64,000 nt of DNA from Pirellulales bacterium (GTDB lineage Bacteria; Planctomycetota; Planctomycetia; Pirellulales; JAICIG01): NCBI GenBank assembly GCA_040901675.1, contig JBBDYJ010000014.1:39305-103304 (forward strand), given 5' to 3'. Made by a program: the position numbers and the translations under genes. This document shows, piece by piece, positions 34,976 to 36,086 of the stretch (the first letter of the stretch is position 1; every line of letters begins with the position of its first letter). The notes under the pieces are model-generated. The model was given only the letters and a program-made list of their open reading frames with translations. It had not been told where the DNA came from and searched no databases.

Positions 34976-34992
34976 ACTTTGCAATGCAAAGT
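34976..34992. promoter_or_regulatory. 17-bp perfect palindrome ACTTTGCAATGCAAAGT (copy 1), putative operator
   Basis: Identical palindrome recurs at 36070-36086; the two copies bracket the membrane-protein and regulator unit. Confidence 0.5.
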
Positions 34993-35010
34993 GAGTGGAC
35001 AACGACATCC

Positions 35011-35634
35011 ATGAGGTCGCCGGCCATGGAGTTGAAAGAAGCACTGGCCCAGATTTCCCAGATCCGCGAGCACATGGCCCGGACCGAGGTGTTCCGCGGC
35101 TATCGCTCGTTGACCGTCGGCTTGTCGGGCGCCTTGGCCCTGGCGGCCGCGATCGGGCAGACGCTCTGGCTTCCGCGGCCGCTCGAACAACTGGCAAGCT
35201 ACCTGGCTCTCTGGATCGGTGTGGCGGTAATCAGCGCGGTGGCGGCCGGCGGTGAAATGTGGACCCGCGCACGCCGGGCCCGCTCGTCGGTCGCCAGACA
35301 AATGACGCTTCTGGCGGTCGAGCAGTTCTTGCCCAGCCTCGTGGCCGGCGCCGTGCTGACCGCGGTGATCGTCCGGCGGGCCGCCGAGTCGGCCTGGATG
35401 CTCCCCGGCCTGTGGGCACTGTGTTTCAGCCTGGGGGTGTTCGCCTCCTACCGCCTGCTGCCGCGGCCCGTGTTCTGGGTGGGCGTTTACTACCTGGTCG
35501 GCGGGGTGCTGGCCCTGGCGTGGGGCCAGGGGGAGGCGGCCCTGTCGCCTTGGTCGATGGCAATCTCGTTCGGCGGCGGGCAGCTTTTGGCCGCCGCGAT
35601 CCTGTACTTCACCTTGGAACGAGGCAACGATTGA
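35011..35634 (+). CDS. Hypothetical membrane protein (about 6 TM helices)
   Basis: Hydrophobic helices; stop overlaps the start of the downstream regulator. Confidence 0.5.
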   Translation: MRSPAMELKEALAQISQIREHMARTEVFRGYRSLTVGLSGALALAAAIGQTLWLPRPLEQLASYLALWIGVAVISAVAAGGEMWTRARRARSSVARQMTLLAVEQFLPSLVAGAVLTAVIVRRAAESAWMLPGLWALCFSLGVFASYRLLPRPVFWVGVYYLVGGVLALAWGQGEAALSPWSMAISFGGGQLLAAAILYFTLERGND

Positions 35635-36032
35635 GCGGGCGAGCCAGACAGAAAGCGAGCAAGCAGACCGACGGGCGGTTTGCCTACGAGGGGCTCGAAC
35701 GCGCGATCCATGAAAAGGCGCGGTTGGGAATCCTCACGTCCCTGGCGGCACATCAGGAGGGACTGCCGTTCAACGACCTTAAGGAGCTCTGTTCGCTGAC
35801 CGACGGGAATCTGAGCCGCCACCTGGCCGTGCTGGAAGAGGCCGGGTTGGTCACGATGAACAAGCTCGCGCAACGGGGACGGCCGCAGACCGTCGCCGTC
35901 ATGACGCCGTCTGGCCGGCGCCGCTTCCAGCAGTACATCAACGTGCTGGAGCAGGTGGTGGCCGACGCGGTGAAGAGCCAGGAGCAGGCCGCCCCGAGTT
36001 CCAAGCTGTCGCACGGCTGGTCGCCGGGGTAA
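35631..36032 (+). CDS. Winged-helix transcriptional regulator (ArsR/MarR-like)
   Basis: ..KARLGILTSLAAHQEGLPFNDLKELCSLTDGNLSRHLAVLEEAGLV.. helix-turn-helix; start codon uncertain (TTG). Confidence 0.5.
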   Translation: MSGRARQKASKQTDGRFAYEGLERAIHEKARLGILTSLAAHQEGLPFNDLKELCSLTDGNLSRHLAVLEEAGLVTMNKLAQRGRPQTVAVMTPSGRRRFQQYINVLEQVVADAVKSQEQAAPSSKLSHGWSPG

Positions 36033-36069
36033 ACGTGTCGCCTTATCAGGTGTTTCTTGTTGCCTATTA

Positions 36070-36086
36070 ACTTTGCAATGCAAAGT
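36070..36086. promoter_or_regulatory. 17-bp palindrome ACTTTGCAATGCAAAGT (copy 2), upstream of ispH
   Basis: Exact repeat of the 34976 palindrome. Confidence 0.5.

Follow-up and report, generated by a model that had tools for sequence, protein, structure and literature searches.

We analysed a 64-kb stretch of DNA from a Pirellulales bacterium (hereafter the window; assembly GCA_040901675.1, contig JBBDYJ010000014.1), in which the 17-mer ACTTTGCAATGCAAAGT occurs as two exact copies, at 34976-34992 and 36070-36086, spaced 1094 bases apart. The copies stand on either side of two genes, one for a membrane protein and one for a small winged-helix regulator, and the second copy precedes ispH and a gene for a B12-binding radical S-adenosylmethionine (rSAM) protein; all four genes are on the + strand. 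The closest relative among the matches listed, contig L201 of a Pirellulales metagenome-assembled genome (MAG), encodes a membrane protein 97% identical to that of the window and has the same gene order. The locus is laid out as follows.

34952 to 34957, + strand: -35-like hexamer TTGACA, read from the sequence as part of the predicted promoter of the membrane-protein/regulator operon; identical in L201
34975 to 34980, + strand: inferred -10-like hexamer TACTTT, 17 bases past TTGACA, its last five bases being the first five of the palindrome
34976 to 34992, no strand: putative upstream operator, exact consensus ACTTTGCAATGCAAAGT, located by exact match and weight matrix
35026 to 35634, + strand: membrane protein of about 202 amino acids, with alternative starts at 35011 and 34984
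35631 to 36032, + strand: winged-helix regulator of 133 amino acids, Pfam HTH_34, with a TTG start
36070 to 36086, no strand: putative downstream operator, exact consensus, located by exact match and weight matrix
36113 to 37012, + strand: ispH (4-hydroxy-3-methylbut-2-enyl diphosphate reductase), from TIGR00216 and Pfam LYTB
37016 to 38527, + strand: B12-binding rSAM protein with a DUF4070 domain, from its Pfam domains

The TTG start codon of the regulator gene overlaps the TGA stop codon of the membrane gene by four bases (ATTGA), and the same overlap is present in L201. The downstream operator lies 37 bases past the regulator stop codon and 26 bases ahead of the ispH start codon, with the sequence GGGAGG at 36095-36100 between operator and ATG; this ispH start agrees with the annotated start in L201. 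Because only 3 bases separate ispH from the rSAM gene, the two are presumably co-transcribed.

The palindrome is an 8+1+8 inverted repeat, ACTTTGCA-A-TGCAAAGT. A first-pass annotation of this DNA had described it as a perfect palindrome, which is correct for the 8-base arms, as they pair exactly, but not for the centre base, which is unpaired and is the only position at which the reverse complement of the 17-mer deviates. The same annotation had judged perfect palindromes of this length unlikely to occur by chance. No third match was found anywhere in the window when up to three mismatches were tolerated; matches averaged 0.07 over 100 dinucleotide-preserving shuffles, and the observed count was never equalled. 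A weight matrix for the site, built from loci independent of the window, scored both copies at 33.2 bits, while the runner-up position in the window reached 7.1 bits, less than the mean maximum of shuffled windows (8.0). The palindrome pair is real and not a product of chance.

The link between palindrome and regulator was supported by comparison across genomes, which were searched in two ways. Reference genomes, one per species and 596 Gb in all, were scanned for exact matches to ACTTTGCANTGCAAAGT, yielding at least 120 stretches; to avoid circularity, 80 metagenome loci were fetched by protein alone, using a peptide pattern for the recognition helix of the regulator confirmed by tblastn. In about 65 of the 120 exact-match stretches listed, a homologue of the regulator is encoded no more than roughly 1 kb from the palindrome, usually together with the membrane protein. 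At least eight phyla carry the exact palindrome beside a regulator homologue, namely Acidobacteriota, Planctomycetota, Verrucomicrobiota (including Kiritimatiellia and Victivallales), Pseudomonadota (Alpha- and Gammaproteobacteria, with Bradyrhizobium and Sphingopyxis), Actinomycetota (Streptomyces, Micromonospora), Gemmatimonadota, Bacteroidota and Spirochaetes. Among the protein-anchored loci, with up to three mismatches allowed, 31 of the 39 loci covering the region ahead of the membrane gene have a site immediately upstream of that gene, 51 of 69 have one 25-150 bases past the regulator, and 24 of 36 have both, 1030-1168 bases apart. Over 245,605 bases, only four matches fell at other places; one or more of these are themselves ahead of a target gene, as in L175, where a second operator precedes uppS after creD. 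The rate in shuffled sequence was 6.6e-7 sites per base. Eight loci lacking an upstream site at this threshold were inspected, and seven of them have a site with 4-5 mismatches that retains the CTTT...AAAG core; the core of the consensus site reads CTTTGCA-N-TGCAAAG. In L201 the downstream operator has 2 mismatches, and its flanking bases have diverged more. The proposal that the two copies form an operator pair for the adjacent regulator is thus supported by their co-occurrence at the same two positions, in loci found by protein as well as by DNA and in at least eight phyla. Judged from these comparisons, the palindrome is very likely the consensus operator of the HTH_34 regulator encoded between its two copies.

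The regulator matches HTH_34 (PF13601) with 73.2 bits against a cut-off of 27, its residues 31-110 covering profile positions 2-80 of 80, and its homologues bear the same precomputed domain. The recognition helix T57-D-G-N-L-x-x-H64 (TDGNLSRH in the window) is invariant among 21 aligned homologues, which come from several phyla and share only 31-64% identity with the window protein; the invariant residues of this alignment are R31, F47, T57, D58, G59, N60, L61, H64, L68, T87 and G95. The single cysteine of the regulator (C54, in an ELC motif) is not conserved, and the alignment contains no conserved metal-binding residues (CxC in alpha3, or His/Asp/Glu in alpha5). The protein has no evident ligand site. 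Its predicted structure (predicted local distance difference test, pLDDT, 81.6) consists of three helices, a beta-hairpin wing and a long C-terminal helix, and the nearest solved folds are PH1061 (1UB9), PadR-type Rv3488 and MepR, all dimeric regulators. The regulator had been called ArsR/MarR-like, a description that fits the fold but not the family. It scored 39.5 bits against a cut-off of 55 for the ArsR/SmtB model NCBIfam NF033788, 21.3 against 100 for the SdpR model NF033789, and 16.8 against 24.6 and 24.9 against 27 for Pfam MarR and MarR_2; since none of these cut-offs was reached, the ArsR/MarR family assignment was dropped. Matches to Pfam HTH_5 and HTH_20 were weak, and the Pfam profile search returned no match to PadR. 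The regulator is best described as HTH_34, or PH1061-like.

PH1061 of Pyrococcus horikoshii is its closest solved relative both by sequence (E 7.5e-9 over residues 28-110) and by fold (template-modelling (TM) score 0.78 on target). The winged helix and C-terminal helix are common to both proteins, and the recognition helix of PH1061, T-x-G-N-L-x-x-H, resembles that of the window regulator. PH1061 differs in being archaeal and in being known as a structural-genomics 'transcriptional regulator homologue', whose entry gives neither function nor DNA target. The next nearest folds belong to PadR subfamily 2 (Rv3488 and others, TM on target 0.68-0.75), and MarR-type MepR scores about 0.5. Regulators of both groups are dimeric repressors of adjacent genes and bind palindromes, but the likeness of the window regulator to them is structural only. 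With ArsR/SmtB proteins it shares the helix-turn-helix-wing core and, as predicted here, autoregulation via an inverted repeat over the promoter; it differs from them in its long C-terminal helix, which is PadR/PH1061-like and unlike ArsR alpha5, in its score below the family cut-off and in having no conserved metal-binding motif.

The upstream copy of the palindrome overlaps a predicted promoter. TTG starts 24-26 bases ahead of the palindrome in 55 of 95 upstream sites, compared to 4-16 at control offsets, and the three bases ahead of upstream palindromes favour T-W-T, producing a -10-like TWTACT that shares its final ACT with the start of the palindrome. The corresponding arrangement in the window, TTGACA followed after 17 bases by TACTTT, is conserved in L201 and predicts a transcription start at about 34987, inside the upstream palindrome. 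A consensus promoter scan of 34500-36400 called nothing, because the -10 hexamer agrees with the consensus at only 3 of 6 positions. As the palindrome overlaps both the -10 hexamer and the predicted start, a bound dimer would exclude RNA polymerase and so autorepress the membrane-protein/regulator operon. The locus has the sequence features of an autoregulated repressor, an inverted repeat over the promoter of its own operon that is conserved with the regulator.

The first-pass annotation had placed this copy over the start region of the membrane gene. It does contain ATG 34984, which opens the longest open reading frame (ORF) of that gene, but the likely start is ATG 35026. Homologues begin at the residue matching ATG 35026, with M1 nearly invariant in their alignment (A2); the centre base of the upstream palindrome is G in L201; and the palindrome centre keeps no consistent frame relative to the membrane gene in related loci (31/28/14). 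For these reasons we assign the upstream copy to the promoter or leader region and not to a true start codon.

The membrane protein itself is predicted to span the membrane with 5-6 helices, preceded by a conserved cytoplasmic helix at the N-terminus. It matched no Pfam or NCBIfam family, and its structural model (pLDDT 85.6) has no significant neighbour in the PDB (best E 0.57, TM 0.29). The family comprises 1645 representatives at 50% identity and, at 90% identity, at least 1893 clusters; every named homologue among the matches listed is a 'hypothetical protein' and lacks a Pfam domain. In 113 of 127 loci the gene immediately ahead of the regulator encodes a homologue of the membrane protein. 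Five exceptions (e.g. L033, L048 and L065) have a different membrane protein of 4-6 helices in this place, and the remaining upstream ORFs of the set are mostly apparent wrong-frame calls with no predicted transmembrane segment.

Downstream of the second copy, ispH was assigned by the TIGR00216 equivalog model (223.9 bits, cut-off 187.85). The rSAM protein reached no NCBIfam equivalog cut-off, its best score being for HpnJ (75.6 bits vs 577.6), with HpnR at 33.6 vs 650, and the HpnP model was absent among its NCBIfam matches; its architecture of B12-binding, rSAM and DUF4070 domains is also that of HpnP (bioRxiv 10.1101/2025.07.29.667474, on HpnP annotation). The gene directly behind the downstream operator differs by lineage, encoding a UppS-type cis-prenyltransferase (PF01255) in 52 loci, IspH (LYTB, PF02401) in 21 and CreD (PF06123) in 20, and a homologue or orthologue of the B12-rSAM protein is the next gene downstream in 20 loci. 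Three rSAM orthologues, 68-79% identical to the window protein (L016, L051, L091), have the palindrome directly upstream and no regulator nearby, and in L010 an extra copy stands between ispH and the rSAM gene. The suggestion that ispH and the rSAM gene are co-regulated gains from these sites of the rSAM gene's own and from the recurrence of ispH behind the operator; their placement supports both genes as targets, whichever way the downstream site acts. The second copy had also been located in the ispH promoter region; an independent ispH promoter could not be identified.

A further pattern characterises the loci with uppS. In 34 of the 36 non-redundant loci, the NTG at the palindrome centre shares the UppS reading frame; it is usually an ATG, and usually no further start codon follows downstream. 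The distances from the centre to a conserved motif, 18-87 bases, are all multiples of three, and UppS read from the centre ATG begins M-Q-S (e.g. L008 6660-6676, L012 1939-1955 and L027 1856-1872). Since the centre codon is in frame, the operator of these lineages covers the very beginning of the uppS coding sequence, a pattern that does not hold for ispH in the window. By gene context, uppS is a paralogue in at least one Bradyrhizobium locus. Tandem arrays of two or three operators were observed between regulator and uppS in the acidobacterial loci L081, L164, L167, L191, L194, L009, L042 and L049, with adjacent operators mostly 33-68 bases apart. In Verrucomicrobiota/Victivallales the site, sometimes as a tandem pair, was also seen ahead of other genes (L062 1522-1563, L007 6815, L083 2434), which encode a 366-amino-acid secreted protein and a 184-amino-acid membrane protein and may be further regulon members.

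Several observations weigh against the regulator-operator assignment. First, about half of the exact-palindrome stretches listed have no regulator in the fetched DNA. With 16 specified bases and 596 Gb, about 140 chance matches are expected, which would account for many of the regulator-less matches (in Firmicutes, Bacteroidales and similar groups); another part is explained by sites near a contig end. Second, the downstream site is wholly missing in some loci that do encode the regulator (L145, L178, L184). Third, no recognisable sigma-70 promoter was found between the regulator and ispH in the window. Fourth, a conserved T-tract followed by G stands 8 bases ahead of many downstream operators. 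Lastly, literature searches for the PF13601/HTH_34 system, the motif, a uppS operator or a link to DUF4070 found nothing.

The T-tract corresponds to a conserved TTTTTTTG right after the regulator stop codon that ends exactly 8 bases before the palindrome in loci of the uppS and creD types (e.g. L043, L156 and L012). TTG occupies positions -10 to -8 of the downstream operator in 30 of 36 uppS loci and 16 of 17 creD loci, compared to 4 of 18 ispH loci. Its interpretation as an intrinsic terminator was not supported in general: hairpins abut the tract in 45% of loci and in 34% of controls, and the mean folding z is -0.15 versus +0.16 in controls (p = 0.097). With this TTG taken as a -35 hexamer, there was no enrichment of TANNNT at 16-18 bases, and the best spacing was 20 bases, in 19 of 66 loci.

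Among alternatives to the adjacent regulator, a different and unlinked global transcription factor might bind the palindrome, with the membrane-protein/regulator operon merely one of its targets. Such a factor would be consistent with the exact palindromes ahead of rSAM orthologues and other genes in fetched stretches of 8 kb that contain no regulator (L016, L051, L091, L007, L062). We nevertheless consider it unlikely. The site occupies two fixed positions of this operon in every phylum examined, where a second factor would need to co-occur in all of them; the invariant recognition helix parallels the invariant site; and autoregulation by the adjacent small winged-helix protein is simpler.

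Quite improbable, in our view, is that the palindrome acts as an RNA hairpin, whether as a terminator, a stability element or a mask over a start codon. A weak, A+T-rich stem of 7-8 bp can form (-6.4 to -7.0 kcal/mol, z about -2.5), and in the uppS-type loci it could cover the in-frame centre ATG (34 of 36). However, the paired arms do not covary: among 101 sites of the protein-anchored loci, departures from the consensus were one-sided in 138 arm-pair cells and compensatory in 4, and because they are one-sided, the half-sites appear to decay independently, as the halves of a symmetric site for a protein would. Across phyla the sequence of the stem is kept, which is typical of protein recognition. 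Neither copy is followed by the U-tract or T-run of an intrinsic terminator or coincides with an Rfam family, and a terminator scan called neither, reporting only a weak terminator-like stem at 36039-36052. Furthermore, with the upstream copy over the predicted -10 hexamer and start, much of that palindrome would be untranscribed. The palindrome's behaviour fits that of a DNA site for a dimer and not that of an RNA hairpin.

We can practically dismiss a repetitive extragenic palindromic (REP) element, or terminal repeats of a mobile cassette carrying the two genes: identical copies do flank the two-gene unit, and a few genomes (Cerasicoccus, Thermococcus) have two or three exact copies, several inside ORFs, with no regulator in the fetched DNA, but the window holds two copies only, the matches listed include at most three exact copies per assembly (120 stretches from about 116 assemblies) instead of the hundreds per genome that the first-pass annotation had named as the mark of a generic REP, the same sequence recurs at fixed promoter-proximal positions in at least eight phyla, which REP elements do not span, single copies stand ahead of effector genes, and neither a transposase or integrase nor a target-site duplication appeared among the ORFs and genes listed around the unit.

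One archaeal MAG, Thermococcus sp. S013, contains three exact copies (L071, at 163-179 and 764-780, and L098). Two of them, separated by 601 bases, lie in non-coding DNA where ORF fragments are repeated and no homologue of the regulator is nearby; this is probably an unrelated repeat. Cerasicoccus frondis (L045, L075, L109) and C. maritimus (L077, L082) have several exact copies per genome, several of them within ORFs, in fetched DNA without the regulator. As no link to the regulator was seen, the copies in both genera were rejected as regulator-linked and treated as chance matches or unrelated repeats.

Starting from a site that is real and non-random, regulator-linked across phyla, promoter-positioned and DNA-like rather than RNA-like, we propose the following mechanism for the HTH_34 regulator and its operator pair. 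A regulator dimer would place one recognition helix (TDGNLSRH) on each ACTTTGCA arm. When bound at the upstream copy, it would shut off the membrane-protein/regulator operon; at the downstream copy, it would control the ispH-rSAM pair, whether by covering an internal promoter that our scans do not recognise or by acting as a roadblock to read-through from the upstream promoter. The co-translated membrane protein would be the likely signal input, holding or releasing the regulator in response to a membrane or envelope cue. With no evident ligand site in the regulator and with the two genes coupled in translation, sequestration by the membrane protein is the simplest model; a sensor role for this protein is the weakest step of the explanation. 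The inferred elements of this scheme are binding, the direction in which the downstream copy controls its genes, the part played by the membrane protein and the signal.

The proposed working model has a precedent in SdpR-SdpI of Bacillus subtilis, an ArsR-type autorepressor sequestered by its membrane partner, with both encoded in one operon. Both systems would combine a small winged-helix autorepressor and a polytopic membrane protein in one operon. They differ in the proteins, as the window regulator scores below the SdpR cut-off and the membrane protein has no SdpI-family Pfam match; in gene order, which is reversed in the window; in the operator; and in the targets, which would be lipid and isoprenoid genes, not toxin immunity.

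Small winged-helix repressors that regulate their own operon through a palindromic operator and have a membrane partner are a familiar kind of system. What is unusual, as far as the genome comparisons indicate, is an operator nearly invariant over at least eight phyla whose predicted targets centre on isoprenoid and polyprenyl metabolism. Few factor/operator pairs keep one DNA sequence over many bacterial phyla, HrcA/CIRCE and NrdR among them, and the regulator and operator described here appear to be another such cross-phylum pair. Regulator family, operator and regulon appear undescribed, and the regulator and its membrane partner are unstudied as far as the literature searched shows. The conserved predicted targets, namely uppS, ispH, CreD and a B12-radical-SAM enzyme that is itself highly conserved, suggest that isoprenoid lipid carriers or envelope lipids are under control here; none of the papers searched described a transcriptional regulator dedicated to this task.

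More speculatively, the two genes and their operator could constitute an ancient pan-bacterial module that senses the membrane or envelope and tunes the supply of isoprenoids and polyprenyl carriers via one nearly invariant operator; we regard this as a possibility, though a doubtful one. If true, the module would tune ispH in Planctomycetota and Verrucomicrobiota and uppS in Acidobacteriota and Bradyrhizobium, in addition to an unassigned B12-rSAM enzyme and CreD, and polyprenyl-phosphate metabolism would have a dedicated transcriptional feedback regulator. The consensus site provides a tool for regulon prediction in any genome, and Bradyrhizobium, Sphingopyxis and Streptomyces are tractable carriers.

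Other features around the locus were also noted. A small ORF at 36060-36116 (TTG...TGA, MPINFAMQSHGAGGGCKE) runs across the downstream palindrome, and its stop codon overlaps the ispH ATG (ATGA); it is probably meaningless, its frame being broken by a 1-base indel in L201. An additional half-site-like TGCAAAGA at 36105-36112 was dropped since it is not conserved in L201, and a DUF4153 gene behind the rSAM gene was rejected as part of the module since it recurs only in L201. Upstream of the operon, two dense tRNA arrays lie on the - strand, at 29879-30513 (6 genes) and 32993-34484 (13 genes), the latter ending about 490 bases short of the upstream palindrome. At 34509-34605, in the gap from this 13-tRNA array to the promoter of the membrane gene, 5.2 copies of an 18-base tandem repeat, CCAACAAAAAACCCGGTG, occupy the expected place of the array's own promoter. 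Farther along the window, a fragment of a group II intron (D1-D4) was detected at 45397-45511 on the - strand (77.5 bits), and a cobalamin riboswitch at 61682-61866, also on the - strand (85.8 bits), is noteworthy given the B12-dependent radical SAM enzyme encoded in the operon described above.

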